From: Verrucomicrobiota bacterium
Lineage (GTDB): Bacteria > Verrucomicrobiota > Verrucomicrobiia > Chthoniobacterales > UBA10450
Direction: 5' to 3'
Assembly: GCA_003218975.1 (NCBI GenBank)
Contig: QHPD01000098.1
Location: forward strand, 11,880-75,879
Length of the DNA stretch: 64,000 nucleotides
How positions within the stretch are numbered: position 1 is the stretch's first letter; each line of letters opens with the position of its first letter. The position numbers and the translations under genes were made by a program. Of the stretch, positions 382 through 28,751 are shown piece by piece. A model generated the notes under the pieces. The model saw nothing but the letters and a program-made list of their open reading frames with translations. It did no database searches and was not told the DNA's origin.

Positions 382-1416
382 ATGCACGGCGCGTTTTATC
401 AATCGGAAGCTGATCAGCCGCACCCAAGCCGGGCGCGGGCAATCATCAAAGCGCATCCGGAGGTTCGCCGGTTAATGACGCGCAATCCGTGGACTGCTCA
501 CATTGCCGTCTCAATCGTCATCCTGCAAACAGCGATCGCGTACGGAATGGGCACGCTTGGATTTGGTTACTGGTGGCTCAGTGTGCTCATCGCTTTTTGC
601 ATCGGCGCGTTCGCCAATCACGCCAACTACGTCATCATTCATGACGCGACACATAACCTGATTTTTCGGAACGCAAGCTGGAACAAAATGGTGGCCATCA
701 TAGCCGACCTTCCAAACCTCACTCCCGGCGCAATGGGATTTCGGGTTTATCACTTAAAACATCACTCGCACCAGGGCGACTATCAATATGATGCTGATCT
801 GGCGAATCATTGGGAGGCGCGACTGGTAGGCAATAAATGGTATCGGAAGGCGATTTGGCTCATGCTGTTTCCATTTTTTCAAGTGACCCGTCCGCCTCGG
901 CTGAAAGCGGTCAAGATGTGGGATCGGTGGTTCTTCATCAATTTCGCATGCGCAGCGGCTTATGATGCAGCGGTTGTTTATTTTTGCGGCTTGCCCGGGT
1001 TTCTTTATCTCGTATTCGCGTTTTTCTTTTCGATCGGCTTGCATCCGGTAGGTGCTCGCTGGATTCAGGAGCATTACACCTACGATTTCGACCAGGAGAC
1101 GTTCAGTTATTACGGACCAATCAATCGAGTGGCCCTAAACATGGGCTATCACAACGAGCACCATGATTTGCCGTCGATCCCATGGAACAAACTTCCGAAA
1201 TTGCGCGCCATGGCGCCGGAATTCTACGATAATCTGAAGTATCACACCTCATGGAGCCGATTGCTGTTGCAGTTTATTTTTGACAAGCGATACAGCCTCT
1301 ATTCGCGCGTTGAACGAATGAGAGAATCCAGCGACTGCGCGACTCAACCGGCTCCAGACACGACAACCAGTCAGAATGGCAGTCTTGATCTCAGTGCGAG
1401 GCCAATTAAGTTCTAA
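382..1416 (+). CDS. membrane fatty-acid desaturase family, sphingolipid (dihydroceramide) Delta4-desaturase-like
   Basis: Three His boxes (HDATHN, HLKHHSH, HNEHHDLPSIPW). The N-terminal segment (QPHPSRARAIIKAHPEVRRL) resembles the Lipid_DES domain of DEGS enzymes. Multiple TM segments. Confidence 0.8.
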   Translation: MHGAFYQSEADQPHPSRARAIIKAHPEVRRLMTRNPWTAHIAVSIVILQTAIAYGMGTLGFGYWWLSVLIAFCIGAFANHANYVIIHDATHNLIFRNASWNKMVAIIADLPNLTPGAMGFRVYHLKHHSHQGDYQYDADLANHWEARLVGNKWYRKAIWLMLFPFFQVTRPPRLKAVKMWDRWFFINFACAAAYDAAVVYFCGLPGFLYLVFAFFFSIGLHPVGARWIQEHYTYDFDQETFSYYGPINRVALNMGYHNEHHDLPSIPWNKLPKLRAMAPEFYDNLKYHTSWSRLLLQFIFDKRYSLYSRVERMRESSDCATQPAPDTTTSQNGSLDLSARPIKF

Positions 1417-1418
1417 TT

Positions 1419-2033
1419 ATGGCGGAGCGGCATTACATTTCGACGAAGAACGAAACCGTTCGAATGTTCAAAAGCGATTTCATGGAGTTTTTCTCACATG
1501 TGCATCCCGCTACGCCTTTGGTCCTCTACTTTCCGGTCGTCGGTTACATGCTTTACCTAGCGTTTTGGCAAAGCCGATTGTCGATTCTGGCCGTGGCCGG
1601 TTTGTTCCTGCTCGGTGTGCTGATCTGGACTCTGCTTGAATACATTATCCACCGGTACGTTTTTCATTATGAACCAAAGACCGCTCTGGGGAAACGATTG
1701 CACTACATTATTCACGGCGTTCATCACGATTATCCCAACGATGCCCGGCGTTTGGTCATGCCGCCGAGCATCAGCATTCCGGTTGCGATCTTATTTTGGG
1801 CGCTCTTTGCCATTAGCCTTGGCCGGTTCGCGCCGGCCCTCTCCGCTGGATTTGGATTTGGCTACGTTTGCTACGACTCGATCCATTACGCGATCCATCA
1901 CTTCGAGATGAAACGGGGGGTGTGGCTTTGGCTGAAACAGTATCATCTCCGCCATCATTACAAAGATGATCACGTTGGATATGGCATCAGCTCCCCGCTT
2001 TGGGATTACGTTTTTGGGACAACGCGGAAATAG
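1419..2033 (+). CDS. fatty acid hydroxylase superfamily, FA2H/Scs7-like sphingolipid alpha-hydroxylase
   Basis: His boxes HRYVFH, HGVHHDYPND..RLVMPP, YDSIHYAIHH, YHLRHHYKD..GYGISSPLWDYVFGT match the FA2H/Scs7 pattern. Starts 3 nt after the desaturase stop. Confidence 0.8.
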   Translation: MAERHYISTKNETVRMFKSDFMEFFSHVHPATPLVLYFPVVGYMLYLAFWQSRLSILAVAGLFLLGVLIWTLLEYIIHRYVFHYEPKTALGKRLHYIIHGVHHDYPNDARRLVMPPSISIPVAILFWALFAISLGRFAPALSAGFGFGYVCYDSIHYAIHHFEMKRGVWLWLKQYHLRHHYKDDHVGYGISSPLWDYVFGTTRK

Positions 2034-2091
2034 CGTTGGGCTCTCGAAATTGGGGTGCTCGGGGATGAGGCGAGCCAAGTGCACTAAACTC

Positions 2092-2215: not shown

Positions 2216-3496
2216 ATGAGCGGCAATTTGAATCGGCAACTGTCGGCGCAGGAGTTCGACGCGAAACTAAGTCTGGCTGATTTCATAGTAGGCGACAGCG
2301 ATGATCCGCTGGTGCCGCCACTGGCATTTACACAATGGCGCCAAGCCGGTGCCTGGGAGGCCACGCTTTACGAACCGGAGTTGCTCGCCACGGCAGATGC
2401 TCGGACGACGATCAATTACGAAGGGAAACCGCGTTCGGTCATCAATCTTTGCTCATACAATTATCTTGGGCTTGCCAATCATCCTGAGGTGCTGGCTGCC
2501 GCGCACGAGGCGCTCAGGACCCACGGAATGGGGGCATGTGGTTCGCCGTTGCTCTCAGGAATGACCGATCTTCACAGGGAACTGGAACGTCGTGTGGCAA
2601 AATTTCTCGGCCGCGAGGATGCGATGTTGTTTAGCAGTGGCTTCGGTGGTGCGCTCGGAACTATCTCCGGTCTCTTACGCAAGACCGACGTTGCGATCCT
2701 GGATAACCGATCGCACTTGAGCCTGCGCGACGGCGCCGTGCTTTCGCGCTCGCGCGTCGATCGCTTCGAGCACAACGATCCGGCTTCGCTCGATGCAGCG
2801 CTCAGCCGGAGAAAAGGCAAACGGCAGCTTGTCATCGTTGAAGGCATTTATTCGATGGATGGAGATTTTGCCAGTCTGGACGGATTGCTCGACGCCGCCG
2901 AGTCACACCACGCGAGTGTCTTCATTGATGAAGCGCACTCGATGCTGGCCTGCGGGGCACATGGGAGGGGCGCGGCTGAACACTTCGGCGTTGAAGGACG
3001 GATTCCGCTCGTCTACGGCACTTTCTCAAAGGCGTTCGGCGCGCTCGGCGGTTTTGTCACCGGCCCGGTCCAGACATTGGATTACTTGAGATATTACGCG
3101 CATCCCTACGCGTACTCCTGCGCCTTGCCTCCCGCGATCGTCGCCGCGGTTTTGGAGGCGCTGGAAATCGCCGGGCGCGAACCGGGCCTGCGTGATCGGC
3201 TTTGGTCGAACGCGAACTATTTCCGGGAGCACTTGAACGCGATCGGGATCGACACCGGGGCGTCGAGCACTTACATCATGCCGCTCGTTGTCGGCGATCG
3301 GGCACGAATGTACCAATTGGGTCATGAATTGCGCCGCTGCGGCCTCTTCGTCGCGCCGGTTGATTTTCCCGCCGTGCCCGAAGACCGCATCTGTTTTCGC
3401 GCCTGTGTGACGGCCAACCATACACGCGAGGATCTGGACGAAGCGCTCAATATTCTCGAGGACACACTCGTTCCAACAACGCTACAGAACGCTTGA
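2216..3496 (+). CDS. spt: alpha-oxoamine synthase (PLP), serine palmitoyltransferase-like
   Basis: AOS-family pattern with NYLGL, SGFGG, DEAHS and the PLP-lysine context GTFSKAFGALGG. SPT assignment comes from the sphingolipid gene context. Confidence 0.8.
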   Translation: MSGNLNRQLSAQEFDAKLSLADFIVGDSDDPLVPPLAFTQWRQAGAWEATLYEPELLATADARTTINYEGKPRSVINLCSYNYLGLANHPEVLAAAHEALRTHGMGACGSPLLSGMTDLHRELERRVAKFLGREDAMLFSSGFGGALGTISGLLRKTDVAILDNRSHLSLRDGAVLSRSRVDRFEHNDPASLDAALSRRKGKRQLVIVEGIYSMDGDFASLDGLLDAAESHHASVFIDEAHSMLACGAHGRGAAEHFGVEGRIPLVYGTFSKAFGALGGFVTGPVQTLDYLRYYAHPYAYSCALPPAIVAAVLEALEIAGREPGLRDRLWSNANYFREHLNAIGIDTGASSTYIMPLVVGDRARMYQLGHELRRCGLFVAPVDFPAVPEDRICFRACVTANHTREDLDEALNILEDTLVPTTLQNA

Positions 3497-4449
3497 GTGG
3501 GCAGCGTCTGAGCCTAATGCCGGAACAAATCGAGTCAGCGCCCACTCTCGAGGCCACTTACAAGGCACCCGAGGTCGAGGGAGTGCTCGATCTCTATTTT
3601 TATCGGCCAATAGGATTCCGGCTGGCTCAGTTTTTCGAGAGGCTCAAAATGACACCGGCAGGCGTGACTTTGTTCGCCGGCCTCTTCGGAATCGTTGCGG
3701 GTCATCTCTATTTTTATCGGAATTTGCGCGTCAACATCGTGGGGATGGCACTCCACGTTTGCGCTAATGCGCTCGACAACGCCGACGGTCAGCTCGCCCG
3801 CCTGACTCATCGCGAGACCCGCGAAGGCCGCATTATTGACAGCCTTGCCGATCACATTGGCTTCCTGAGTATTTACGTCCATTTGACTCTCCGTTACCTC
3901 GCCGAGGGTTCATCGCCTGCAATCTGTCTTGTTGCTATGGCGGCCGGGATCAGTCACGCATTGCAAGGCGCCGCGGCTGATTATTACCGCAGCACGTATC
4001 TTTATTTTGTCACGAACCGAGCGCGCATGGGATTGGATTCCGCCGCTGTTCTGCGATCCGATTACCAGGAGCTAAGTTGGCGTTCCAAGCCCTGGAACAA
4101 GTTCCTGCTCGCATTGTATTTGAACTTTACTCGCCAACAGGAAATGCTTGCGCCGCAGCTGAAAAAGTTGCGCGATGCAACCAGCCAACTGTTCCACGGT
4201 GAAATCCCAGACTGGTTAAGGACGCGTTATCGAAACCTAGCGAGCCCGACGTTGAAATGGTGGGGTCTCTTGATGACGAACTCACGGATGTTGGTTTTGT
4301 TTGCTTTGCTGTTCATCGGCCAGCCGATTTACTATTTCTGGTTCGAACTCATCCCGCTTAATCTTCTGCTCGTCTATCTGATTACTCGCCAGGAACACAT
4401 GGCTGAATCGCTGTTGGAAGTTACCGAGCAATGGGGAAATTCCGCGTAA
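3493..4449 (+). CDS. CDP-alcohol phosphotransferase family membrane protein
   Basis: Perfect D-x2-DG-x2-AR-x8-G-x3-D-x3-D motif (DNADGQLARLTHRETREGRIIDSLAD). Polytopic. Start overlaps the spt stop (TTGA); an ATG at 3517 is the alternative start. Confidence 0.85.
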   Translation: MSGQRLSLMPEQIESAPTLEATYKAPEVEGVLDLYFYRPIGFRLAQFFERLKMTPAGVTLFAGLFGIVAGHLYFYRNLRVNIVGMALHVCANALDNADGQLARLTHRETREGRIIDSLADHIGFLSIYVHLTLRYLAEGSSPAICLVAMAAGISHALQGAAADYYRSTYLYFVTNRARMGLDSAAVLRSDYQELSWRSKPWNKFLLALYLNFTRQQEMLAPQLKKLRDATSQLFHGEIPDWLRTRYRNLASPTLKWWGLLMTNSRMLVLFALLFIGQPIYYFWFELIPLNLLLVYLITRQEHMAESLLEVTEQWGNSA

Positions 4450-4464
4450 GTCGATTTTCTATTC

Positions 4465-5595
4465 GTGTCGAATATTGAAGTTTCAGAAGTCGGCTCGCGC
4501 CGGGATCGCGATGCGTTCATCAAATTTCAATGGCAAATTTACGCCAATGATCCGGCGTGGGTTCCGCCGTTAATCATCGAGCGAAAGGCCTTCCTCGACC
4601 GCAAGCGGCATCCGTTTTACCAGCACGGTGACGCCGCATTGTTTCTCGCGCGGCAAAACGGTGAAATCGTTGGCCGGATCATGGCGAGCGATGATCCGAA
4701 TTACAATTCGCTGCACGAGACGAATGTCGGTTGTTTTGGACTCTTCGAATGCGTGAATGACCGTGACATAGCTGCTGCGCTCTTTGATGCGGCGACCGCT
4801 TGGCTGCGAAAAAAAGGCCGAAGCGAGATCATGGGCCCGATCGATTATTCAACCAATTATGTCTGCGGCCTGTTGATCGACGGATTCCAGTTTCCCCCCA
4901 CGATCTTGACCGCGCATAATCCGCCGTACTACAGAGAGCTGATCGAGAGCTGCGGCTTCACAAAAGTCAAAGATTGGTACGCGTGGTGGTTCGCTGATCC
5001 GTCAAGAGCCGTGGTGCATTTGCGGCAACTCGCCGCGCGGTTTCGCAGGCGCTGGCCTGTCACGATTCGCCCGGCTAATCTCAAAAATCTCCGCGACGAA
5101 AGCAGACGGCTTCGCGAAATCTACAATCAAGCGTGGGAAAAAAACTGGGGCTTTGTTCCCTTTACCGAGGCTGAGTTCGATCACCTCGCGCACGAGATGA
5201 AGCCGCTCATCGTGCCGCAGGCAACGTTGCTCGCGGAAATTGGCGACAAGCCGGTCGGCTTCGTCATCGGCGTGCCCGACATCAACGTCGCCCTCCGGCG
5301 GATCAACGGACGATTGACCCGTTTTGGTTTTCCCATCGGCTTGATCAAATTGCTGTTCTACAAGCGACGCATCCGAAAAGGCCGCCTGATTGCTCTAGGT
5401 GTAGTCGAGAAATATCGTCGTGCCGGAATCGCCGAGATGCTGGTGTTACGCGTAATGGAAGAAACAATGGTCAAACGGGGGTTCACCGGCGAACTAAGCA
5501 TGACGCTCGAGGACAATTTTATGATCAACCGTTTCCTCGAAGCGATCGGCGCGCGGCGTTACAAAACGTATCGCACCTATGGCAAGAATCTGTAG
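4465..5595 (+). CDS. GNAT-fold N-acyltransferase, candidate bacterial ceramide synthase
   Basis: C-terminal GNAT motif A region (LIALGVVEKYRRAGIAEMLV) and a two-lobed, about 376 aa architecture. The ceramide-synthase role is inferred from context only. Confidence 0.5.
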   Translation: MSNIEVSEVGSRRDRDAFIKFQWQIYANDPAWVPPLIIERKAFLDRKRHPFYQHGDAALFLARQNGEIVGRIMASDDPNYNSLHETNVGCFGLFECVNDRDIAAALFDAATAWLRKKGRSEIMGPIDYSTNYVCGLLIDGFQFPPTILTAHNPPYYRELIESCGFTKVKDWYAWWFADPSRAVVHLRQLAARFRRRWPVTIRPANLKNLRDESRRLREIYNQAWEKNWGFVPFTEAEFDHLAHEMKPLIVPQATLLAEIGDKPVGFVIGVPDINVALRRINGRLTRFGFPIGLIKLLFYKRRIRKGRLIALGVVEKYRRAGIAEMLVLRVMEETMVKRGFTGELSMTLEDNFMINRFLEAIGARRYKTYRTYGKNL

Positions 5596-5626
5596 GGGAA
5601 CAGTCTGCTTCTCTCAGGGATGAAAC

Positions 5627-6730
5627 TCAGCGGTCGCGCTCGCCGCGGATGAATTGCTCAACGCAGCGATAGGCTTCGTCGTCGGTCATTTGCACGGGCG
5701 GATGCTTGGAGAAGTATGCGGAAGCCGAATGCAACACGCCGCCGATGCCGCGATCGAGTGCGAGCTTGCAGCAGCGGACGGCGTCGATCGCTACGCCGGC
5801 CGAGTTTGGCGAATCTTCCACCGAAAGTTTCACGTCGATTTCCATTGGCACATCGCCAAAGAGTCGGCCTTCCACGCGGATGAAGGCAATTTTGTTGTCG
5901 AGCTGCCACGGTACGTAATCGCTCGGGCCAATGTGGATATTTTCATCCGCCAGACGCTCGCTCATCACAGATTGGACGGCTTCGGTCTTTGAAGTTTTCT
6001 TCGACGCTAGCCGGGTGCGATTGAGCATGTTCAGGAAATCGGTGTTGCCGCCAGTGTTCAACTGATAGGTACGCACCATTCTAACGCCGCGCTTGCGAAA
6101 AAGGTCCACCAGCGCCCGATGCAGGATGGTGGCGCCCATTTGCGCTTTGATGTCGTCTCCGATGACCGGCAAATTTCTGTCGGCAAAACGCTTTGCCCAT
6201 GTTGGATCGCTCGCGATGAAAACAGGGATGTTATTGACGAAACCAAGTCCGGCTTCCAACGCGCAGCTGGCGTAGAAGCGGGTCGCCTCCTCCGAGCCAA
6301 CCGGGAGATAATTGACCATCAGCTCTGCGGAGGAGTTCTTCAATTCGGCGATGATCTGTTCGCGAGTGGATTCTTTCTCCAGCGGCAGGAACGTGCGCAA
6401 CGGGTCCTGGTCGCGCATGTGAGGAGCGAATCCGTCCAAAACGCAGCCCATTTTCACGATGGCTCCTGTGAGTTTGACCTTGTCGCAGAAAACCTTTGTG
6501 CAATTGGGCGGCGAAAAAATCGCCTTACTCACGTCAAGACCGACTTTACGCCTGTCAATGTCAAAAGCAGACACGACTTCGATATCGCCCGGCCGGTACG
6601 AGGCGATCTGGCGATGCATCAACCCGATGCCAGTGTCGTTGGCTGAGGAGCCGTCATAAAAATTTATCCCCTGAACAAGAGAGTTGGCGCAGTTTCCAAC
6701 CCCAACGATGGCGATTCTTATTTTTCTCAT
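5627..6730 (-). CDS. ino1: myo-inositol-1-phosphate synthase (inositol-3-phosphate synthase)
   Basis: N-terminal Rossmann signature KIRIAIVGVGNCANSLVQGI. Length and overall pattern are typical of bacterial/archaeal MIPS. Confidence 0.85.
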   Translation of the reverse strand: MRKIRIAIVGVGNCANSLVQGINFYDGSSANDTGIGLMHRQIASYRPGDIEVVSAFDIDRRKVGLDVSKAIFSPPNCTKVFCDKVKLTGAIVKMGCVLDGFAPHMRDQDPLRTFLPLEKESTREQIIAELKNSSAELMVNYLPVGSEEATRFYASCALEAGLGFVNNIPVFIASDPTWAKRFADRNLPVIGDDIKAQMGATILHRALVDLFRKRGVRMVRTYQLNTGGNTDFLNMLNRTRLASKKTSKTEAVQSVMSERLADENIHIGPSDYVPWQLDNKIAFIRVEGRLFGDVPMEIDVKLSVEDSPNSAGVAIDAVRCCKLALDRGIGGVLHSASAYFSKHPPVQMTDDEAYRCVEQFIRGERDR

Positions 6731-6943
6731 TTCTAAATTGTTAAAGCTGAAAAGCTATCTGAATTAGATTATTCGTAGCAAGACACAAATCAGGCCGCTT
6801 CAACCACAATAGTTGTACCTGTCTGCAGCAGCTGCGAGTATTGCAAGCGCGGAATGTGTCCGAAGTCGCGCCGGGTTGCAAGAACTGATATAAGGGGAAA
6901 ATTCACGGGCATTCTTGGTTGCAAAGAAGGCCCTTGCAAAGAG

Positions 6944-15670: not shown

Positions 15671-16085
15671 AACGCCCGCGACCTTTCTTGGACCCGAGAA
15701 CCCGCCAGCCATAAGTCGAGCGTCGGCAAGCCTGGGCGTTACCGCCAAGATCCACAGCTGTTCCAAGTGAATGTAGTGTCGATAGAACGACCGACTTGAC
15801 TCCGTGCATCATCGCCGCCGTAACGGCTTTGGTCGCGACTCGGGGATTTAGCGAACATGCCGATATTTTCCAAAAATGATCGCATTCCAACCAGCTGGCC
15901 GTGCGCTCGTAACGTCGATGTCTTGTTTCAATTTGCCGAGAACGACCGATATGTGAGCCGAGAACAGGCTTCTGCTTTTATAGACAGCGCGCCCGCAGAC
16001 AAAACTTCTGCAACGTCATGCCGCGCAAATTACGCCGCGCGAAGACGATTGTCGATCTTGCACTGGGCCTGGCGAGGTGAAACGC

Positions 16086-17249: not shown

Positions 17250-17274
17250 TTTAATTCAGCTGTCAGACGAGGTA

Positions 17275-19020: not shown

Positions 19021-19122
19021 TCTCAGCGAGTGCTAGTCCCGGGCACGGATCTTCCGGGCGCTTCAAAGACTTTCCAGCCGTTACGGTGTGGTTTGATTTC
19101 GATAATTGTCAGACTTCCCTGC

Positions 19123-19505
19123 TCAAACATACCTTCGAACCTTGGAACGGTACTGGTGATAGGTCTCACCAAACTTCTGCTCGAGGTAGCTCTCCTCGGG
19201 CAGGACAACTCCGCCATGCATAGTGATTAGGAGCGGAACGAGCACGACAATGCCCTACCACGTATTGAACATCAAGACGAGCCTCGATATAGGAGCGTCA
19301 GCGCCACGTAAAGAGGACTTCGAGAGAACCGAAACGGGCCGGATGTGACAATGGACGTGGTTGGGCGAAAGGGACTGATGTTCGTGGATGAGGCCCGGAG
19401 CGATTTTCTTACCCATATAATGATCGCAATAGCAAGCACGACTAGCGCAAGGCCGGGCCAGAGAAAAATGGCCTGGCCAGGGATTGGTATTGGCGAACTG
19501 GCCAA
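19123..19505 (-). pseudogene. disrupted isoprenylcysteine carboxyl / phospholipid methyltransferase-family gene
   Basis: Family signature TSGPFRFSRSPLY in frame A ends at a TGA (19272-19274). The rest (LVLMFNTW*GIVVLVPLLITMHGGVVLPEESYLEQKFGETYHQYRSKVRRYV) lies in another frame with an in-frame TAG at 19255-19257. This implies a 1-nt deletion near 19282 plus a nonsense codon. Confidence 0.6.
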
Positions 19506-19507
19506 AC

Positions 19508-21030: not shown

Positions 21031-22278
21031 TTAATTTCCGGATGTGCTCCTCTTAAGAGAATCGTAAATGTGCGTAACTTTCTCAAAAACATCGTCCACT
21101 GTGATTGCTTGCATGCAAAGATTGTTGCGGCAGACCGATTGCCGGTTGTTGTAGGCGTTTACGCACGGACTGCACGCGATGCCGGCCCACAGCGCCGTCG
21201 CGTTTGGCGATCGCGCGGCAAATAGCGCCGGTGTCTCCGGCCCGAACAACGTGACGACGCGAATCGGCGTCATCGAGGCAAAATGAGCCGGGCCACTGTC
21301 ATTCGTCACCAAAATCTCACTGCGGGTGTAAAGCACGAGCACCTGCCGCAGAGTCGTTTTTCCGGCAAGCCGGATGACGCGATCCGAACCGACCTCGTCC
21401 GCAAGCCGGTTGTTAGGAGCGGCTTCGGCCGGGGCACCTGTAAATCCGATAAATAAATCCGAATAACGTTCGAGCAACCGCCGCGCAAGCTGGACATAAC
21501 GCAGAGGCGGCCACCGCCTAAGCGGCAGCAAGTCGCTCGCGTTCGGGTTGAGCAGAATGAGCGGCGCAGAACCGATGCGAGGATTTTCGCGTTGTAGCAG
21601 GGCATTGATTTCAGCAACTTCGGACAGGGAGGGCCGAAATCCTGCAAGTGGCTGGTTTGCAGCAGGCGTAAAGTCGAACGTCGGGAGCACCGACGGATCG
21701 CGGGTCAGTGATTCAACCATGGCTTCGAACATCTGACTCGTATGGAGATGAGGATTGTACAAAAGCCGGTGCGTCATTAAGTCGCCGCGGTACGGTCCGT
21801 CGCCAAAAAAAGTATGAAAGCCAACACGCGATTTGGCACCGGTCGTAAACGTCAGTATCGCGGAGAAACGTGTCAGAAATTCCATATCAACGACCGCGTC
21901 GATGCCGATTTTTCGGACCCGGAGCACCGCTCGCAGCGCACCAGCCGCGAGTCCGAAGAGACTCTTCGTCGCGATCGTTATCACATTTCCATTGGGAATA
22001 ATTTCCATCGTGTCGAGAATGAAGCGATTGTCTTCGAATACGACGAAGTAAACGTTTTCACGTCCAACCATTTTGATTGCACGACGAATTGCGGGATAGG
22101 CGAGAACGGTTGAGCCCTGCTCCGCGAACTTGACGAAGAGAATGCGCTGAACTTGGCGCGGTCCTGGCCGCCCCGCGGATTCAAAGATTCTTCTGAGAAG
22201 GGTTAAAATGGCGCAAAGCGGCGCACCAACCCAGCGATCGGTGCGTTGCAAAGTTAGAATGCTTGCCGGGAGATCCAT
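21031..22278 (-). CDS. glycosyltransferase family 9 (heptosyltransferase-like)
   Basis: GT9 pattern: RRWPPLRYVQLARRL, GAPAEA, LAGKTTLRQVLVLYTRSEILVTNDSGPAHFAS. Confidence 0.8.
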   Translation of the reverse strand: MDLPASILTLQRTDRWVGAPLCAILTLLRRIFESAGRPGPRQVQRILFVKFAEQGSTVLAYPAIRRAIKMVGRENVYFVVFEDNRFILDTMEIIPNGNVITIATKSLFGLAAGALRAVLRVRKIGIDAVVDMEFLTRFSAILTFTTGAKSRVGFHTFFGDGPYRGDLMTHRLLYNPHLHTSQMFEAMVESLTRDPSVLPTFDFTPAANQPLAGFRPSLSEVAEINALLQRENPRIGSAPLILLNPNASDLLPLRRWPPLRYVQLARRLLERYSDLFIGFTGAPAEAAPNNRLADEVGSDRVIRLAGKTTLRQVLVLYTRSEILVTNDSGPAHFASMTPIRVVTLFGPETPALFAARSPNATALWAGIACSPCVNAYNNRQSVCRNNLCMQAITVDDVFEKVTHIYDSLKRSTSGN

Positions 22279-22435: not shown

Positions 22436-24022
22436 ATGGTGTATAACTTCGAAATCGCCCAAGCCCCTGACCGGCTTCGGGCGGAGTCAGCGAGCACAAC
22501 GCAAATTGCGCTCGAGGTTGCGCCGCCGGCAGCGGATGCACCAGCGCGTGTAGACGAAACCGGAGTGGAGCTAAAACGCGGCGCGTTCTTGAACACGATC
22601 GCGATGTTGGCTTCGAATTTCCGCGGGATATTCACGTTTCTCGTTGCGCGACTGCTCGGACCGGCGGCACTCGGCATATTCTCCGTTGCCTGGTCGACGA
22701 CTGACATCATCAGCAAGATCGGTGTTCTTGGCCTCGACAATGCGATCACCACGTTCATCGCGCGCTCGGAGGCCGTGGGCGACCGCGCGAGAAGCAGGGC
22801 GCTTTTTCGAATCGCTGTAGTGCTCGGGGTTGCGCAGTCCATTATCACTGCCGTCGTTGTGATACTGGGCCTCCGGTTTTTTAACAACCGTCTTCATATA
22901 CAGCCGCAGATGGTTTCGGCGCTTGCGCTCGTTCTTTGCGCGATGCCAGGTCTGGCTCTGTATCGCATCAGTACCGCTATCTCGCGGGGGATGAAAGTGA
23001 TGCAACACGACATCTACTCACGCGGGATGATGGAACCAATTGCAACGACACTCGCCTTCCTCTTTGCAGTTGCCGTCGGCTTTAAGCAGTCCTCACCGGA
23101 AGTGGCTGCAATTGTTGGGACAGCAGCGTCAGGACTTATTGCACTCGCGCTCGCTTCAACGTTGTTTCGACATGTTCCCCCGCAAAGGGAAGTTGTTTCC
23201 CCTTTCGGCGAAGCACGGTCGCTACTCGCGTATTCGGCTCCCATCAGCATTTATCAACTGATTAACGCGTTCATCGCCCGGTTGGACCTTCTCATGCTCG
23301 GTTACTTCGTTGGACGCGCACCCGGTGTGACGCTTGCAACCGTCGGTGTTTACAGTGCAGTGATCGGCACAGCGAACGGGCTGCGAAAAGTGAACCAGGC
23401 TTTCAACCCCATTTTCGCACCGGTAGTAGCCGGTATGACCGCGACAGGCGATCACGAAATCGCTGCGGCCACATATGCTCGGCTTGCCCAGTGGATGCTC
23501 TGGATATTGTTGCCGCTGGTGGCAGTGATGTCCCTCGCGGGCAGCACGATTTTGCTCATCTACGGTCCAGCATTTTGGCAGGGCGGAGTTTGGCTCGGCA
23601 TCGTCGCTCTTGCCAGTGCTATCAATGCATTTGTGGCATTAGGCGAAACGGTAATCATGGTGCAACGGCCACATTTAAATCTTCTGCATTCTTCGATTAC
23701 ATGCACGGTCGCGGCTGCGGGGCTTCTCTGGTTAATTCCGCGCTTCGGCGTGATGGGTGCGGCTTTTGGTATCCTTTTGCCCTATGTCGTTCAAGGCATT
23801 CTACGCTATGCGACGCTGCGATGGGTCTTTCACTGGAAAGATTCATGGAGTGACATTCGGCCGCCGCTGATCGCTGCGGGAATTGCGCTCGTTCCCACGC
23901 TCGTCTGCAGATTGTTCCTGGGTGGAATTGCCGGGCAAGTCATCAGCGCTGCGGCTTTTCTGGCAGTATTTGGTGTTCAGTGGTTGCAGCACCATATCCA
24001 TCGCAAGGACGAACGTCCTTAA
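22436..24022 (+). CDS. MOP-superfamily oligosaccharide/lipid-linked glycan flippase (Wzx/polysaccharide biosynthesis protein-like)
   Basis: About 14 TM segments and the Polysacc_synt-like N-terminal pattern (GAFLNTIAMLASNFRGIFTFLVARLLGPAALGIFSVA). Confidence 0.75.
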   Translation: MVYNFEIAQAPDRLRAESASTTQIALEVAPPAADAPARVDETGVELKRGAFLNTIAMLASNFRGIFTFLVARLLGPAALGIFSVAWSTTDIISKIGVLGLDNAITTFIARSEAVGDRARSRALFRIAVVLGVAQSIITAVVVILGLRFFNNRLHIQPQMVSALALVLCAMPGLALYRISTAISRGMKVMQHDIYSRGMMEPIATTLAFLFAVAVGFKQSSPEVAAIVGTAASGLIALALASTLFRHVPPQREVVSPFGEARSLLAYSAPISIYQLINAFIARLDLLMLGYFVGRAPGVTLATVGVYSAVIGTANGLRKVNQAFNPIFAPVVAGMTATGDHEIAAATYARLAQWMLWILLPLVAVMSLAGSTILLIYGPAFWQGGVWLGIVALASAINAFVALGETVIMVQRPHLNLLHSSITCTVAAAGLLWLIPRFGVMGAAFGILLPYVVQGILRYATLRWVFHWKDSWSDIRPPLIAAGIALVPTLVCRLFLGGIAGQVISAAAFLAVFGVQWLQHHIHRKDERP

Positions 24023-24909
24023 TCCGAAGCGAAGACATCCCAGGCGTCCCCGAAGAATGCGATCGTTTCGTTGTTGTGGTACTGACGTCCGTCAGGAACA
24101 TCGTGCAGCGATAAGGTCCGGCGTTGCCGAAACACACTCCGCATCATGGCCGATGCGGGCACAACATATCTCTTCACGTTACGCCTAGCGAGGCATCCAC
24201 TGATCCAAATATCGTCCATGTAAAATGCTCCCTGCGGCGCTTGAGAATAATCCCAGAGCGATTCGTCGAAAAATCTCGGTTGAATTAAGTAACTTCCGCA
24301 CCCTGTGATCACCGCCACGGGTTGCGGCTGGCGAAGCTCTCGCGCGCGAATCATCCTGGCGTGCCGCCAATCCAGACCTTGCGGGATCGCTGCACCGCGA
24401 AAGCATAAGGCCGCTGCAGGTAGTTGCTCGTTGTAATAGAGATATGTTTCAAGCGCATCTCGCGGATAAACGCGATCATCGTCCACAACCATTATCAATG
24501 TATTGCCCCGGCCCGCCGCCAGTTCTTCTCGAACGACGGGGATAAACTTCGTGGCCGGTCCCCAATCCCTGCGACATTCCAGGACACGCATTCGCGGCCA
24601 ACGCGAAACATCTTTCGGCACTGCATAAGGCCGTTGCTCCCGAGTCGAAAATTCCGGTATGGCCAGGACGATCTCATCCGGCGGCGACGTCTGTCTCAGC
24701 AGAGAGCGAACCGTCGGCCCCAGGTTGCCGATCCGCTCTGGTACCGTCGAAAGCGAAACAATCACACGGCGATCGCCGGATTTCTTGCTGCTTGCCAAGG
24801 TTTCACGGATGAAACGGACTTGTCGCCGATGCTTTCTACTACCAGGAAGCAGACGCTTGAGACCGAGCACACCCAAAATGACAAGGGCCGCGCAAATCAG
24901 CGGAAACAT
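24019..24909 (-). CDS. membrane-anchored GT-A fold glycosyltransferase
   Basis: N-terminal TM anchor, SLSTVPERI...SLLRQTSPPDEIVLAIP, DWGPATKF, and DxD-type motif VVDDDRVYP. Family not assignable by eye. Confidence 0.55.
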   Translation of the reverse strand: MFPLICAALVILGVLGLKRLLPGSRKHRRQVRFIRETLASSKKSGDRRVIVSLSTVPERIGNLGPTVRSLLRQTSPPDEIVLAIPEFSTREQRPYAVPKDVSRWPRMRVLECRRDWGPATKFIPVVREELAAGRGNTLIMVVDDDRVYPRDALETYLYYNEQLPAAALCFRGAAIPQGLDWRHARMIRARELRQPQPVAVITGCGSYLIQPRFFDESLWDYSQAPQGAFYMDDIWISGCLARRNVKRYVVPASAMMRSVFRQRRTLSLHDVPDGRQYHNNETIAFFGDAWDVFASD

Positions 24910-25021: not shown

Positions 25022-26545
25022 ATGGCCGAACAGCAACGAATGCGCTGGTCTATGGCCTCAACCGAGATGGAACAGAGCGATTCCGGCCAACAATCCGTGA
25101 TTAAAGCCGTGCTGCTTTTTTTCGCCGCTTTCGCGCTTTACTTTTTCACGCATTCGCCGGCGCTCGATGAAATCGATGCTGTGCAATTTGCGATGGGCGT
25201 GCGCTCGTTCGACCTCTGGCATCACCAGCCGCACCCACCTGGTTATCCGCTTTTTATTTTCTTTGGCTGGCTGGGCACGAGATTTTTCCACATCGGAACC
25301 GAATCATCGCTTTACTGCGCTTCGGCGTTTGGCGGTGCACTTTTCATCGCGGCTTGGTTCTCGATTATTCGCGTCCAGTTTTCCGAAAGGCTCGCATGGT
25401 GGGTCGCAAGTTGTTTGCTGATCACGCCAGTTGTTTGGATGACGGCTACGAAGGCGGTGACGGACATGCTGGCAGCTGGTCTCGTGGGCGCGGAGTTACT
25501 TGCCGCGATCTGCTTTTTGAAACAGGGGAAGCGCGGCCTGATTGTTTGGGCTGCTCTCCTTGGGGCCGCCGCAGCTGGGACACGGCCGCAATTGTTTCCT
25601 GTCGTTGCAGTGGTTCTTGGCATTCAGCTCAAGAAAGGCTGTGTAAATGCTAAAACATGGTGGTTTGCGTACGCGGTGCTGGTCGCGGGTTGTCTAACCT
25701 GGCTTCTGCCTATGTGGTACATGCAGTCTCAATTGCGTCCAAATGAGCCGTTCTGGCGTGTGTATCCCGAGCTCGCGTACGGCCAATGGCGCTGGCGCTT
25801 AAACCTGCCGTCCGTTTACATCGGGGCGGGCGATTGGAGTCCTCACTACCTCGGAATGCGGTTCGTCAGGCACATTCTCGGGTGGTTTTGGAAAGGGTTC
25901 GGCTTCATTCAATCGCCTCGGGTGCTTGCAGCCGGTATCGTTCTTACAACGTGTGCGATCATCGCTTATTTTCGGTTCGGACGCGAAGCGATCGATCAGC
26001 GATTTTGGAGATTTCACGGTCCCTGGCTCTTAGTTGACATTGCGATTGTCTTTATCGCGCTTCCCGGCGATCAAAGATACTATCTCATGGTCTTTCCGCC
26101 GCTCTTTGTCATAATGCTCCGCGGTTTTTTACGATTACCAAAACCGTGGAACTTGTCGGCAATCTGCGTTCCGGCATTGCTCCTGTATATCCTCGTTCCA
26201 TTGGCCATAGAGAATCACCGTGATGAAGCGCCAGCAGTCCGGTTCGTACGCTATTTGGAAAAACTTTATCCGCCCTCGAAGCGCGGCAACGTGCTCTTGA
26301 TTCTACCTGTTGTGTACCGTTCCGCCCAGTGGTACGCGCCGCAATTCAAAATATTGGACCATGTCCCCATCGCGGAGGACGAAGAAGTGCTACGGAATGC
26401 GGCAGCGGTTTATACCGACGATCTATCCCTCAAGCGGAAAGATTTTTACTTGATAAAGCTCGCCGAGTTCAGACGCTCAATGTTGATTTACCCTCAGAAT
26501 CGCCGTGTCCGACTTTATCTTGTCGAACGGCGCCGCTCCTCATGA
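25022..26545 (+). CDS. GT-C-like membrane protein of the DUF2723/TMEM260 type
   Basis: Polytopic. N-terminal loop ALDEIDAVQFAMGV...HPPGYPLFIFFGW resembles the DUF2723 signature. Confidence 0.6.
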   Translation: MAEQQRMRWSMASTEMEQSDSGQQSVIKAVLLFFAAFALYFFTHSPALDEIDAVQFAMGVRSFDLWHHQPHPPGYPLFIFFGWLGTRFFHIGTESSLYCASAFGGALFIAAWFSIIRVQFSERLAWWVASCLLITPVVWMTATKAVTDMLAAGLVGAELLAAICFLKQGKRGLIVWAALLGAAAAGTRPQLFPVVAVVLGIQLKKGCVNAKTWWFAYAVLVAGCLTWLLPMWYMQSQLRPNEPFWRVYPELAYGQWRWRLNLPSVYIGAGDWSPHYLGMRFVRHILGWFWKGFGFIQSPRVLAAGIVLTTCAIIAYFRFGREAIDQRFWRFHGPWLLVDIAIVFIALPGDQRYYLMVFPPLFVIMLRGFLRLPKPWNLSAICVPALLLYILVPLAIENHRDEAPAVRFVRYLEKLYPPSKRGNVLLILPVVYRSAQWYAPQFKILDHVPIAEDEEVLRNAAAVYTDDLSLKRKDFYLIKLAEFRRSMLIYPQNRRVRLYLVERRRSS

Positions 26546-27342
26546 AACGCATTTTCATCACCGGAGCGAGCTCGGGCATTGGCCTGGCCATTGCTAAACT
26601 ACTGGTGGCAGAGGGTCACGAAGTTTGGGGCACATCGCGCAATTTGGAACGCGTCCCCAAAATGCCGCGATGTCATCCAATGCGTCTCGATCTGACCGAT
26701 CCGCTTTCCATCGAGCAGGCATTCAATGCCGCGCTTGCGGAAGCTCGCTATTTCGACGTCTTGATCAACAACGCCGGGGCCGGACACTTTGGGGCCGCCG
26801 AGTTCCTTCCCGTGAAAACGATCGCAAGCCAGTTTCAAATTCTCGTTTTCGGCCAAATCCAATTGATGCAACTCGCGCTTCGCCACATGCAAGCGCGTGG
26901 AGACGGTTTGATCATCAACGTCAGTTCGTTAGCTTCTCGCCTTCCAGTGCCTTTCATGGCGGCTTACAACTCCGCGAAAGCAGCGCTGGCAGCCTTTACC
27001 ATGTCGATCCAGCTCGAGTTGGCTCATTCCCCGCTCCACATCGTTGATCTTCAACCGGCAGACATTTCCACGGAATTTAACGAGAGGGTGCGCAAGACCA
27101 ATAAAACGGATCGCTACGAGGCAAGGATCACCAAGACCTGGGAAATCGTCGAACGCAACATGAAAAAGGCGCCAAGCCCGGATCTCGTCGCGCGACATGT
27201 TCTCAAATTGATCGACGCTGTGCACCCGCCGCCCCAGATAACGGTGGGCAACGTATTTGAATCAAAAATTGCACCGCTGATTTTTAGATTTCTTCCCCAG
27301 CGCGTCCGCCTTTGGGGCCTACGGAGATATTACGAAATATGA
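26542..27342 (+). CDS. classical short-chain dehydrogenase/reductase, candidate 3-ketosphinganine reductase
   Basis: TGASSGIGLA, NNAG and the YNSAKAA catalytic triad region. ATGA overlap with the upstream gene (26542-26545). The reductase role is inferred from context only. Confidence 0.85.
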   Translation: MKRIFITGASSGIGLAIAKLLVAEGHEVWGTSRNLERVPKMPRCHPMRLDLTDPLSIEQAFNAALAEARYFDVLINNAGAGHFGAAEFLPVKTIASQFQILVFGQIQLMQLALRHMQARGDGLIINVSSLASRLPVPFMAAYNSAKAALAAFTMSIQLELAHSPLHIVDLQPADISTEFNERVRKTNKTDRYEARITKTWEIVERNMKKAPSPDLVARHVLKLIDAVHPPPQITVGNVFESKIAPLIFRFLPQRVRLWGLRRYYEI

Positions 27343-28178
27343 CGGCGATCTTTGAAGCTGTGATTTTGATGGCCGGACAGGGCTCGCGCCTGCGTGAGTC
27401 GGATAAAACTTTCTTGAAGCCGTTCGTGCCGGTCCTTGGCCGTCCGTTGATTTCGTACACGCTAGATGCCCTGATGCGCGCAGGGATCAAAACCGTCAAC
27501 TTCGTGGTCGGCTACGAAAGCGGGCGCATGATCGCGCAAGCCAACCGGCTGATTCCTTCCGGCCTCAGCGTGTCCTTCATCGAAAACCGCGACTGGCAAA
27601 AACAGAATGGCATCTCGCTTCTTGCCGCCGCTGGGCACGTCGGCAAGTCCTTTCTTCTGACGATGAGCGACCATTTGTTTGATCAATCAATTGTCGACCT
27701 TCTGCTCCATAATGCGGTACCCAACCAACTCAATCTCGCGCTCGACCGAAAGCTGGATTCAATTTTTGATGTCGATGACGCGATGAAAGTTCAGACTCAG
27801 GCGGACCGAATCCTCAAGATTGGAAAAGACTTAACGGTTTACGATGGAATCGATACCGGTCTTTTTGTATGCTCACTAGACATTTTCGATTACCTCGAGC
27901 GAGTAAAACGTGACGGAGATTGCAGTCTTGCTGACGGAGTTCGATTGATGGCGTCGGAGGACAAAGCCCGCGCCGTCGATATTGGAGATGCCTGGTGGCA
28001 GGACATCGACACCATCGCAATGCTGCAATGCGCTGAGACGCAATTACGATCGCGGCTCGCGCGTCACGACATCGCCAGCGCCAATGCTGGATCTGGTCGC
28101 GGCAATCGCGCTGGGAACCAGGCTCGCGCCCGCGACAATCGTCCACAGGTGCAGGATCCAGTCAGCCAGGCCGAGTAA
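27339..28178 (+). CDS. sugar/alcohol-phosphate nucleotidyl(cytidylyl)transferase
   Basis: Canonical loop ILMAGQGSRL..K.F. ATGA overlap with the SDR stop (27339-27342). The last about 45 codons are low-complexity and overlap the convergent gene. Confidence 0.8.
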   Translation: MTAIFEAVILMAGQGSRLRESDKTFLKPFVPVLGRPLISYTLDALMRAGIKTVNFVVGYESGRMIAQANRLIPSGLSVSFIENRDWQKQNGISLLAAAGHVGKSFLLTMSDHLFDQSIVDLLLHNAVPNQLNLALDRKLDSIFDVDDAMKVQTQADRILKIGKDLTVYDGIDTGLFVCSLDIFDYLERVKRDGDCSLADGVRLMASEDKARAVDIGDAWWQDIDTIAMLQCAETQLRSRLARHDIASANAGSGRGNRAGNQARARDNRPQVQDPVSQAE

Positions 28179-28751
28179 TGCGAGTATAAGAAAAACGGCG
28201 AGAGCCATGTCGCGTTTAGTCAGCTGAAAGAGCCACCACACAAATCGGTCGCCAAGATTGAGCAAACCGGAATGTGAGATCATTCCGCGATGTCTCGTAT
28301 AAAATGACTCGTGCAAAGTGGACAAAGCAACCGAACTTTTGCTCTTGCCCACTCGTAGGAGCAGCTCGTTGGCCGTAATCAGGACAGCGCACACAACTCC
28401 TTCACTCGAACGGCGAAGCCCCAACCCGAGCGCGAGAACATAGAGAAGGCTTGCTGCAAAATCGCAAAAGTAATCCAGTCGTTCCCCGAGTTTTGATTCC
28501 AACTTTTTGGCGCGCGCGATTTCGCCGTCGCAACCATCAAGAATACTGAACACTTGAAAAATGGCTGCGCCGATGACGACGCTGACGTAATCGCCGCGTA
28601 CCAAAAATACAGAGGCAATTAGCGGTAAAACAAAGATCGATATCGTCCACGCGTTAGGGTGAATCGGAAACTTGAGCAGAAAACGCGTTATCCGCCGCGA
28701 AATCGGCCGGTTCAAAAACCGCGAAACTAGACCGTCTTGAGGTTTGCTCAT
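28044..28751 (-). CDS. CDP-alcohol phosphotransferase family membrane protein
   Basis: Perfect motif DGCDGEIARAKKLESKLGERLDYFCD. About 6 TM segments. Confidence 0.85.
   Translation of the reverse strand: MSKPQDGLVSRFLNRPISRRITRFLLKFPIHPNAWTISIFVLPLIASVFLVRGDYVSVVIGAAIFQVFSILDGCDGEIARAKKLESKLGERLDYFCDFAASLLYVLALGLGLRRSSEGVVCAVLITANELLLRVGKSKSSVALSTLHESFYTRHRGMISHSGLLNLGDRFVWWLFQLTKRDMALAVFLILALLGLADWILHLWTIVAGASLVPSAIAATRSSIGAGDVVTREPRS

Follow-up and report, generated by a model that had tools for sequence, protein, structure and literature searches.

A ceramide and CDP-inositol gene island with a hypervariable glycan module and a tripartite exporter in the Candidatus Udaeobacter lineage: a candidate pathway for a bacterial glycosyl-inositol-phosphoceramide

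A stretch of 64,000 nucleotides from a Verrucomicrobiota bacterium (GenBank assembly GCA_003218975.1, contig QHPD01000098.1, positions 11,880 to 75,879; hereafter the window, whose own coordinates are used throughout) carries at positions 382-28751 an island of 23 genes, in which inositol and sphingolipid genes at both ends enclose a set of glycan genes; the gene that follows is a UvrD-like helicase (open reading frame (ORF) listing, Pfam and NCBIfam). The subject of this study is that island and its possible role in making and exporting a glycosylated inositol-phospho-sphingolipid. The closest homologues of its PIG-L gene in reference genomes (85-88% identity) belong to Candidatus Udaeobacter and to soil metagenome-assembled genomes (MAGs) labelled 'Verrucomicrobia bacterium', and the window is of the Candidatus Udaeobacter lineage (Chthoniobacterales, Verrucomicrobiota). 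Our evidence is wholly genomic. Gene families were assigned via Pfam, NCBIfam, PDB sequence search, hhalign and AF2 models with Foldseek, and the proteins of the window were mapped onto 80 genome loci centred on PIG-L, gathered by tblastn/phmmer, and likewise onto 80 metagenome loci with the permease of the exporter at their centre, so that overall more than 160 related loci (L numbers) were compared. Metagenome contigs L083-L086, L163 and L164 are about 100% identical to the window. Counts of presence or absence of the PIG-L cassette rest on 40 informative loci, and those of the junction between myo-inositol-1-phosphate synthase (MIPS) and the outer-membrane factor OEP1 on the 31 loci that reach it. 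All genes listed in a first-pass annotation of this DNA were recovered by ORF calling, Pfam and NCBIfam at or near the positions it had given them, apart from the corrections reported below.

The left end of the island is a ceramide operon on the forward strand. Its first gene encodes a sphingolipid delta-4 desaturase-like protein (DES, 382-1416; FA_desaturase PF00487, 90 bits, with an N-terminal Lipid_DES domain, PF08557, 39 bits against a cut-off of 23), followed by a fatty-acid/sphingoid hydroxylase (1419-2033; FA_hydroxylase PF04116, 70.9 bits) and by an alpha-oxoamine synthase (2216-3496; Aminotran_1_2, 191 bits). The latter scores 311-320 bits against the NCBIfam models of serine palmitoyltransferase (SPT; cut-offs 500-640) and 336 bits against BioF (cut-off 426), below the cut-off in every case, and we read it as an SPT because it adjoins the Lipid_DES, hydroxylase and GNAT genes. 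The hydroxylase stays beside SPT in L003, L029, L084 and L085. Next comes the first of three CDP-alcohol phosphotransferases (CDP1, 3493-4449; PF01066), whose DNADGQLAR...G...D...D motif is intact and whose best NCBIfam matches are AIP synthase and DIPPS; from its sequence and position it is a candidate inositol-phosphoceramide synthase. The GNAT-family acyltransferase (4465-5595; Acetyltransf_1 at residues 215-357) is the protein that we take to be equivalent to bCerS, that is, a candidate bacterial ceramide synthase. Copies of it that are 69-80% identical adjoin SPT and CDP1 in L029, L041 and L113, and the order SPT-CDP1-GNAT is retained in L041, L003 and L113.

That a eukaryote-type delta-4 desaturase with a Lipid_DES domain should head a ceramide operon together with a hydroxylase is an observation in its own right. 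The general statement for bacteria is that synthesis ends with dihydroceramide (PMC10191378); the two genes, as judged from their families, imply a true ceramide or phytoceramide-type species instead of the dihydroceramide usually ascribed to bacteria.

The inositol genes are distributed over both ends. MIPS lies on the reverse strand directly after the ceramide operon (5627-6730; PF01658, 123 bits; TIGR03450, 434 bits over the full length, below the cut-off of 638). At the right end, a short-chain dehydrogenase (SDR, 26542-27342, forward strand), called as 266 aa, gives 139 bits with adh_short, as the earlier identification as an SDR would have it, and resembles KdsR (NF049977, 162 bits against a cut-off of 400), which makes it a candidate 3-ketodihydrosphingosine reductase; a CerR-type protein was not found in the island. 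The last two genes had been described simply as a nucleotidyltransferase and a third CDP-alcohol transferase, a description that holds and can be refined to a split IPCT/DIPPS-like pair. The former (27339-28178, forward strand; GQGSRL intact) has its best match at positions 2-217 of NF041135 (120 bits) and is a candidate CTP:inositol-1-phosphate cytidylyltransferase, while the DIPPS-like transferase (CDP3, 28044-28751, reverse strand) has its best match at positions 226-341 of the same model (74.7 bits) and a full DGCDGEIAR...G...D...D motif. The equivalog cut-off of NF041135 (580 bits) is not reached by any of the scores obtained (120, 75 and 49 bits); part of this shortfall is expected, since each protein spans half of a bifunctional model. 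Overall, the feature set of a CDP-inositol route is present, namely MIPS, a GxGxR cytidylyltransferase and a DxxDGxxAR...GxxxDxxxD transferase, with the full motif in both CDP1 and CDP3.

Between MIPS and the glycan genes, five genes on the forward strand supply all components of a MacB-type tripartite exporter: two TolC-like outer-membrane factors, OEP1 (6854-8347; Pfam OEP, 197 bits) and OEP2 (8344-9816; Pfam OEP, 74.6 bits), a periplasmic adaptor or membrane fusion protein (MFP, 10072-11268; HlyD_D23 and HlyD_3, with TIGR01730 at 143 bits, above its cut-off), a MacB/LolC/DevC-type permease (PERM, 11265-12500; MacB_PCD and FtsX in Pfam, and 173 bits with TIGR02212 lolCE, below the cut-off) and an ABC ATPase (12497-13213; ABC_tran, 116 bits). 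The permease is 90-100% identical across the 80 metagenome loci. The two tandem TolC-like genes are strongly diverged (25% identity) and are kept in every island, so that the pump may have a hetero-oligomeric duct or else a choice between two ducts.

These genes form a conserved frame of three parts: the ceramide operon (DES, hydroxylase, SPT-like, CDP-alcohol transferase and GNAT genes), an invariant MIPS-OEP1-OEP2-MFP-permease-ATPase block and, beyond a variable stretch, the SDR with the IPCT-like cytidylyltransferase and the DIPPS-like transferase. The frame is shared by the Udaeobacter genomes L001, L002, L008, L011 and L081; MIPS adjoins OEP1 in 31 of the 31 loci reaching that far, and all 80 metagenome loci carry MFP-PERM-ABC. 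L113 runs on from the ATPase gene through SDR-IPCT-CDP3-GNAT-CDP1-SPT, and L002 likewise has GNAT-CDP1-SPT directly after CDP3. The whole arrangement is found again in a distant Chthoniobacterales genome, L041, in the order SPT-CDP1-GNAT-CDP3-IPCT-SDR-GT4-MOP-PIGL-GTC1-ABC-PERM-MFP-OEP2-OEP1-UvrD, where SPT, GNAT and ABC are 73-76% and PIG-L 42% identical to the window proteins. L041 is colinear with the window after one inversion, and has the non-inverted orientation. Indeed, the left neighbour of MIPS is a UvrD/AddB-like gene pair in 21 loci and GNAT in only 3; because the GNAT-MIPS junction is limited to these 3 loci, the segment from MIPS to CDP3 (5627-28751, junctions near 5600 and 28800) has been inverted in the window lineage. 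The island is intact despite this inversion.

Loss of synteny in related genomes, meaning a fortuitous adjacency, had been named beforehand as the outcome that would speak against a common pathway. Synteny is conserved: the same families occur together in Udaeobacter genomes, in the 80 metagenome contigs and in the distant Chthoniobacterales genome, and their clustering is far beyond chance. The bracketing from two sides, the 31/31 adjacency of MIPS and OEP1 and the recurrence of the whole arrangement in L041 agree with the earlier view that the region behaves as one unit.

The glycan genes, by comparison with this frame, are hypervariable. Among populations whose permeases are at least 90% identical, the interval between the ATPase and SDR genes measures 3-13 kb and exists in at least seven gene-content haplotypes. 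It contains nearly always a MOP-superfamily flippase and a CDP-alcohol-transferase fusion, and usually a GT-B glycosyltransferase (GT9 or GT4) and one to four PMT_2-type GT-C glycosyltransferases. The window haplotype (13 kb) comprises the fusion, a radical SAM enzyme (rSAM), PIG-L, the GT-C genes GTC1 and GTC2, GT9, MOP, a GT2-like gene and a third GT-C gene, GTC3. A haplotype of 7-8 kb has the fusion, rSAM, GTC2, GT9 and MOP, with GT2 present or not; that of L113 (4.2 kb) has GT4, MOP and one PMT_2 GT-C; L081 has three tandem PMT_2 genes and no rSAM; L119 and L151 hold other combinations. At the extreme, the minimal haplotype L156 (3.2 kb) is reduced to a divergent CDP-alcohol-transferase fusion and MOP, with no glycosyltransferase. 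The retention of MOP where no glycosyltransferase is left ties this protein to the lipid made by the flanking genes. In the haplotypes examined (window, L081, L113, L151, L156 and L163) we found no WecA/WbaP-type initiating transferase, Wzy, Wzz, WaaL or nucleotide-sugar gene, which makes undecaprenyl diphosphate an unlikely carrier for this glycan and fits glycosylation of the inositol lipid made by the neighbouring genes. Conserved genes for lipid synthesis and export on either side of a variable glycan cassette are the arrangement to be expected where the head group of a surface glycolipid diversifies. In L003 (4960-7763) the homologues of GTC2 and GT9 are split into two or three ORFs, being either pseudogenes or the product of long-read errors.

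The module opens in the window with the fusion gene (13313-14584, forward strand), which had been annotated as a nucleotidyltransferase joined to a CDP-alcohol transferase. The fusion does exist, but its N-terminal half is degenerate, with ADAPEAL in place of the expected GxGxR and NTP_transf_3 at E=0.0037, and its CDP-alcohol motif is a variant. The match to PDB 4mnd begins only at residue 188 (residues 188-406, E=9e-10) and identifies the C-terminal half as a DIPPS-like phosphotransferase. From these features the N-terminal domain (13313-13900) is probably a catalytically dead relic of an NTP-transferase, which may now serve regulation or substrate binding. Alleles of the fusion that are about 80% and about 40% identical follow the haplotype. 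The rSAM, which had been placed together with PIG-L at 16086-17249, is in fact encoded at 14456-15766 on the reverse strand (Radical_SAM, 79 bits), and only PIG-L lies at the former position. Among solved structures it comes closest to the archaeal tetraether/macrocyclic archaeol synthase (7tol), in a PDB match confined to the core domain; it is called as 404 aa in L163 and is missing from some haplotypes (L081, L095 and L115). As far as this likeness goes, it may modify lipid tails or the cyclitol.

Of the three GT-C genes originally proposed, GTC2 (19508-21022, reverse strand; 57 bits) passes the PMT_2 cut-off, while GTC1 and GTC3 fall below it. GTC3 (25022-26545, forward strand) reaches 18 bits with PMT_2 (E=0.003) and a TMEM260-like match at E=0.017, has DExD...HPPGYPL in its first loop and gives an hhalign probability of no more than 7.5% against GTC2; a protein of L113 that is homologous to it (46-47% identity) reaches 29.4 bits and does pass the PMT_2 cut-off, so that GTC3 is a probable GT-C member. 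PDB sequence searches with GTC1, GTC2 and GTC3 gave no match. The GT9-family GT-B glycosyltransferase (21031-22278, reverse strand; PF01075, 76.7 bits, with all heptosyltransferase equivalog models below cut-off) is, by family, a candidate for the first, cytoplasmic glycosyltransferase, and a GT4 stands in for it in L041, L033 and L113. The absence of any GT4 from 382-28751 had been remarked at the outset; this is correct for the window, yet GT4 is found in those three sister haplotypes. The MOP-superfamily, Wzx-like flippase (22436-24022, forward strand; Polysacc_synt, 52 bits) has at least 11 hydrophobic segments. Finally, the gene taken for a GT-A (24019-24909, reverse strand) encodes a GT-A/GT2-like protein with an N-terminal anchor and a DDD motif, which passes PF00535 marginally (23.9 bits against a cut-off of 23.3) and whose family is uncertain: it has no NCBIfam or PDB match, shows no similarity to ArnC, DPMS, GtrB or PpgS, and gives a poor AF2 model (pLDDT 46.9). 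The counts from scans for promoters and terminators were no different from chance and define no operon boundaries.

The remaining two genes of the module form an accessory cassette (15767-19507) that is polymorphic for insertion and deletion. PIG-L (16086-17213, reverse strand; Pfam PIG-L, 81.5 bits) is a cytoplasmic metallo-deacetylase of the PIG-L/LmbE family with a C-terminal beta-sandwich. Its true start is probably 17213 or 17162, a signal peptide is absent, and its zinc-binding motifs (HPDDE and HPDH, i.e., HPDDE/HxDH) are invariant both in 10 and in 30 homologues. Its AF2 model (pLDDT 68.5) has in Foldseek the LmbE fold, with matches to LmbE-family deacetylases including MshB and BshB; the beta-sandwich had no informative structural match and hence gave no clue to the substrate. 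Its conserved partner GTC1 (17275-19020, reverse strand) scores 25.1 bits against a PMT_2 cut-off of 26.1, carries an invariant D64-E65 in the first loop and is homologous to the GTC2 family (hhalign probability 96%, E=2.5e-9). The two genes adjoin in more than 25 loci, among Verrucomicrobiota, delta-proteobacterial, Thermoanaerobaculia and Xanthomonadales MAGs.

Within the islands the cassette is present in 11 of the 40 informative loci and absent from 29. Without it, rSAM and GTC2 are 16-77 bp apart, which makes 15767-19507 a clean indel of 3.7 kb. Unusually long non-coding stretches lie beside the two genes (19021-19507, 487 bp; 15767-16085, 319 bp); compared with the rSAM-GTC2 junction of cassette-free loci, these flanks showed no shared sequence, no repeats and no target-site duplication. 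In L023, L033 and L149 the island flanks are 78-88% identical to the window, while the alleles of PIG-L and GTC1 are only 46-62% and 38-51% identical. A bootstrapped PIG-L tree distributes the island-linked copies over three separate clades, interspersed with non-island copies (window clade, 200/200; L149+L023+L029, 180/200; L041+L030, 181/200), and the monophyly of all island-linked copies was recovered in 0/200 bootstraps. In about 20 other Chthoniobacterales genomes the pair has a housekeeping location, with nuo genes, fabD, GTC1, PIG-L, yqeY, ispD, a WaaC-like GT9 and an ABC-2 transporter; the GT9, two genes from the pair, scores 123 bits against heptosyltransferase I (cut-off 185), and no inositol or ceramide gene was found within 10 kb. 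No genome occurs twice among the 80 PIG-L loci; the pair thus seems to occur once per genome, at one location or another. In L029 an IS1595 transposase (6982-7938) sits between the ceramide genes and GTC1-PIGL.

Fusions of PIG-L in distant MAGs bear on its function. In L043 (4148-5674) its fusion partner is a GT2 that matches best PpgS (polyprenyl-phospho-GalNAc synthase; 81 bits), ArnC, DPMS and GtrB, and in L053 (8504-10717) and L075 it is fused to the C-terminus of a GT-C. Furthermore, an OmpR-type regulator and a HAMP histidine kinase adjoin the pair in L035, L037, L039 and L043. These Rosetta-stone fusions favour deacetylation of a polyprenyl-phosphate-N-acetylhexosamine (polyprenyl-P-HexNAc) donor over that of GlcNAc-inositol. 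Most likely, judging from gene fusions and neighbourhoods, the cassette is an optional module that would deacetylate a HexNAc carrier and transfer the resulting aminosugar, thereby adding a cationic sugar. The repeated capture of the cassette by an inositol-ceramide island suggests that the island lipid would be the acceptor in those strains. Familiar hopanoid (HpnI/HpnK/HpnJ-type) and aminoglycoside (BtrD/BtrN-type) contexts of such deacetylases were considered and set aside, scans of the island families having given no match to the partner genes.

We hold, with moderate confidence, that the island is one functional unit in which an inositol-phospho-sphingolipid would be built, a short glycan that varies between strains added, and the product delivered to the outer membrane. 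We infer every substrate and product in the following scheme, what is observed being the gene families, their linkage, the variability of the module and the behaviour of the cassette. The SPT-like enzyme, the KdsR-like SDR and the GNAT acyltransferase would make dihydroceramide, which DES and the hydroxylase would then modify to a ceramide or phytoceramide-type species. MIPS would provide inositol phosphate and the IPCT-like enzyme CDP-inositol, from which CDP1 or CDP3 would transfer inositol phosphate to the ceramide in a Kennedy-type reaction; the 13313-14584 fusion probably adds a further phospho-alcohol. A cytoplasmic GT-B (GT9 in the window, GT4 in other haplotypes) would add the first sugar, the MOP protein would flip the lipid over the inner membrane, and PMT_2-type GT-C enzymes would lengthen the glycan on the periplasmic face from polyprenyl-phosphate sugars. 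Finally, the MacB/LolC-like ABC pump, with its adaptor and the two TolC-like proteins, would extract the lipid and pass it to the outer membrane.

The first-pass annotation had understood the region by the logic of glycosylphosphatidylinositol (GPI) and mycothiol synthesis: a GT-B would put GlcNAc on the lipid inositol, PIG-L would de-N-acetylate it in the cytoplasm and, after flipping, GT-C enzymes would mannosylate it, with PIG-L as the defining enzyme. Assembly of the GPI core likewise brings together PIG-L, several GT-C enzymes and an inositol lipid, and the intact catalytic motifs and missing signal peptide of PIG-L fit such a role, as do the GT4 genes beside or near it in L041 and L033 (MshA among their top three NCBIfam matches; the GT4 proteins of L041, L033 and L113 reach 33-72 bits against its cut-off of 462) and the occurrence of PIG-L from three well-supported separate clades, all within sphingolipid/inositol islands. 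As an obligatory or diagnostic core, however, PIG-L does not survive the comparison, being absent, by a clean indel, from 29/40 otherwise intact islands and sitting, with GTC1, in housekeeping or lipopolysaccharide (LPS)-core surroundings in about 20 Chthoniobacterales genomes. Moreover, L113 has the GT4 haplotype without PIG-L, the window lacks the partner GT4 GlcNAc transferase between 382 and 28751, and the GT-C genes match PMT_2 only and none of the Pfam families of GPI or phosphatidylinositol mannoside (PIM) mannosyltransferases. This logic is thus borne out only in part: it gains some support from GT4 near PIG-L in L041 and L033, but the optional, mobile character of PIG-L and its fusions, which point to a polyprenyl-linked substrate, make it unlikely. 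For the cassette, a module like those of the Arn and PpgS pathways accounts better for these same fusions: a GT2 would make polyprenyl-P-HexNAc, PIG-L would deacetylate it, and GTC1 would transfer the hexosamine (HexN) in the periplasm to an outer-membrane lipid, which would be LPS in most Chthoniobacterales and, in Udaeobacter with an in-island cassette, the inositol-phosphoceramide glycolipid or still LPS. The L043 fusion provides the GT2 and those of L053 and L075 the coupling to a GT-C, which is also apparent from the adjacency of PIG-L and GTC1 across phyla; the two-component system beside the pair, the WaaC-like GT9 two genes off in the housekeeping location and the travelling of the cassette as a two-gene unit are in line with it. 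Against it, no ArnC/PpgS-like GT2 is recognisable in the window, and the GT2 fusion is seen in one MAG only. The deacetylases known from such aminosugar pathways belong to other families, namely CE4 (ArnD) and YdjC (NaxD), and in the literature searched there was no PIG-L/LmbE enzyme acting on a polyprenyl-P-sugar or in an ArnT-type pathway. We entertain this reading of the cassette as a serious possibility; it covers the cassette only and is compatible with the scheme for the whole island.

A more conventional explanation would see here an ordinary locus for LPS core, O-antigen, exopolysaccharide or protein O-glycosylation lodged between lipid genes, with the pump as a general efflux or peptide exporter, the region being an island of envelope genes and not one pathway. 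Wzx-like MOP, GT9, GT4 and PMT_2 proteins are indeed standard parts of such loci, O-antigen loci typically differ in their genes from strain to strain, the window has a second GT9 and further envelope genes outside the island, and MacB-type pumps have many substrates (PMC5985334). An O-antigen locus based on undecaprenyl diphosphate was nevertheless rejected as the main reading of the island, since the initiating transferase, polymerase and ligase are missing and only the MOP flippase is present; neither the initiating phosphoglycosyltransferase nor Wzy, Wzz, WaaL or nucleotide-sugar genes turned up in any haplotype examined. The minimal haplotype, with MOP and a CDP-alcohol transferase but zero glycosyltransferases, also speaks against a polysaccharide locus. 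Furthermore, inositol and ceramide genes bracket the glycan genes in every case, even where the segment is inverted and where proteins are 42-76% identical, and MIPS never parts from OEP1 in the loci that reach it. Such a composite locus is accordingly improbable in our view.

Several points weigh against the preferred scheme, i.e., synthesis, glycosylation and export of an inositol-phospho-sphingolipid by one unit. The equivalog-level NCBIfam scores for SPT, KdsR, IPCT/DIPPS and the heptosyltransferases are all under cut-off, and MOP flippases, GT9 and GT4 are typical of LPS and polysaccharide loci. A polyprenyl-phosphate sugar synthase, which the GT-C enzymes need, is not recognisable in the island, whereas three CDP-alcohol transferases exceed what the scheme requires (the third may add a second phospho-alcohol) and rSAM has no place in it. 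The location of the PIG-L/GT-C pair outside the island in most related genomes means that at least some of the glycan genes may act on a different acceptor, and the literature searched held nothing on sphingolipids of Udaeobacter or Verrucomicrobia and no lipid chemistry of Udaeobacter. With these points in mind, we put forward only tentatively the full picture of a Udaeobacter outer membrane coated with a bacterial counterpart of eukaryotic glycosyl-inositol-phosphoceramide (GIPC), bearing a strain-dependent glycan, made via CDP-inositol and CDP-alcohol transferases by enzymes without homology to those of eukaryotes, flipped by MOP and exported by a MacB-type pump, with the cassette providing a new, PIG-L-based decoration of Arn type.

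Bacterial inositol-phosphoceramides (Bacteroidetes, Myxococcus), the idea of a CDP-inositol route and the eukaryotic GIPC and GPI lipids are already known. The closest bacterial parallel is found in Bacteroides vulgatus and Prevotella, in a putative CDP-inositol cluster (Heaver et al. 2022, PMC9246714) where MIPS lies beside an NTP-transferase and a CDP-alcohol phosphotransferase and an inositol-phospho-dihydroceramide is predicted; inositol-phosphoceramide is known in bacteria, and the CDP-inositol route of Bacteroidetes is a proposed one (PMC9246714). That cluster differs in having a HAD hydrolase and no glycosyltransferases, flippase or exporter, and it is thought to go through a diacylglycerol-based phosphatidylinositol (PI-DAG; PMC9246714), whereas the three CDP-alcohol transferases of the island are embedded with SPT, GNAT and DES, which suggests direct transfer to ceramide. 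The archaeal/Thermotoga IPCT-DIPPS enzymes of di-myo-inositol phosphate synthesis (PDB 4mnd) supply the best NCBIfam/PDB matches of 27339-28178, 28044-28751 and the C-terminal half of 13313-14584. Unlike them, the island has the two halves as separate convergent genes (120 and 75 bits against 580) and an extra fused copy with a degenerate cytidylyltransferase, in a context of membrane lipids and not of compatible solutes.

With the eukaryotic GIPC of plants and fungi and with GPI, the island shares the predicted product class (a glycan-inositol-phosphate-ceramide or -lipid), the delta-4 desaturase and hydroxylase, the sequence of cytoplasmic steps, flipping and GT-C reactions with polyprenyl-phosphate sugars, and in some strains a PIG-L-family deacetylase. 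It lacks homologues of AUR1-type IPC synthase, IPUT1, GMT1, GT32 MIPC synthase, PIG-A, PIG-M, PIG-V and PIG-B; its inositol phosphate is predicted to come from CDP-inositol and not from phosphatidylinositol, its PIG-L is optional and its GT-C enzymes are of PMT_2 type. The cassette resembles ArnC-ArnD-ArnT, FlmF2-NaxD-FlmK and PpgS-Rv3779 in coupling a deacetylase to a GT-C, by pairing or by fusion, its relatives adding the GT2 fusion and the two-component system; it differs in that the deacetylase is PIG-L/LmbE instead of CE4 or YdjC and that the window has no such GT2. The exporter is built like DevBCA-HgdD (TolC), MacAB-TolC and LolCDE, with a MacB_PCD+FtsX permease, separate ATPase, MFP and TolC-like duct beside lipid genes, and DevBCA-TolC exports heterocyst glycolipids (PMC6161253). 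Its two tandem OEP paralogues and proposed sphingolipid substrate set it apart from these systems, as do equivalog scores below the cut-offs (lolCE, 173 against 362 bits; DevB, E=1.9e-7). Finally, the sphingolipid genes of Caulobacter (Spt, bCerS, CerR and, for ceramide phosphoglycerate, the cytidylyltransferase CpgD; PMC12275187) likewise combine an SPT-type enzyme with a GNAT-type acyltransferase and use a nucleotidyltransferase for an anionic outer-membrane head group. The island has instead a classical SDR and no NDUFA9-like CerR, a predicted inositol head group in place of the phosphoglycerate of Caulobacter (PMC12275187), and its desaturase, hydroxylase, glycan module and exporter are co-located. 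In the literature searched we found no account of a bacterial island joining ceramide and CDP-inositol synthesis, a variable GT-B/MOP/GT-C module and a dedicated tripartite exporter, nor of a PIG-L-based aminosugar cassette.

Beyond the island, the window contains selenocysteine machinery (selB, 35058-37052; selA, 37460-38926; a selD-like gene of the AIR-synthase family, 38851-39852) and, further on, dnaA and dnaN (49860-52411), followed by the second GT9 (52378-53490) and an M3 oligopeptidase. Given the position of dnaA and dnaN, the island lies roughly 20 kb from a probable replication origin.

Udaeobacter ranks with the most abundant bacteria of soil and has yet to be brought into pure culture. 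If the proposed pathway is true, a bacterial glycosyl-inositol-phosphoceramide would extend to bacteria a lipid class thought typical of plants, fungi and protists, assembled convergently via a CDP-inositol route hitherto only predicted (PMC9246714). No flippase or transporter is yet known for bacterial sphingolipids (PMC11087976); the invariant link of MIPS and ceramide genes to a MacB-type pump and MOP provides concrete candidates for the crossing of the envelope by these lipids. If the scheme holds, a flippase (MOP) and an exporter (the pump with its pair of TolC-like ducts) would for the first time have been identified for a bacterial sphingolipid. The fusions of PIG-L, in turn, make PIG-L-family enzymes candidates for the deacetylase step of polyprenyl-P-HexNAc pathways, for which, to our knowledge, pathways of PpgS/Rv3779 type have no enzyme assigned. 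Lastly, the hypervariable module suggests that phage, predators or antibiotics exert diversifying selection on the cell surface of this dominant soil lineage.

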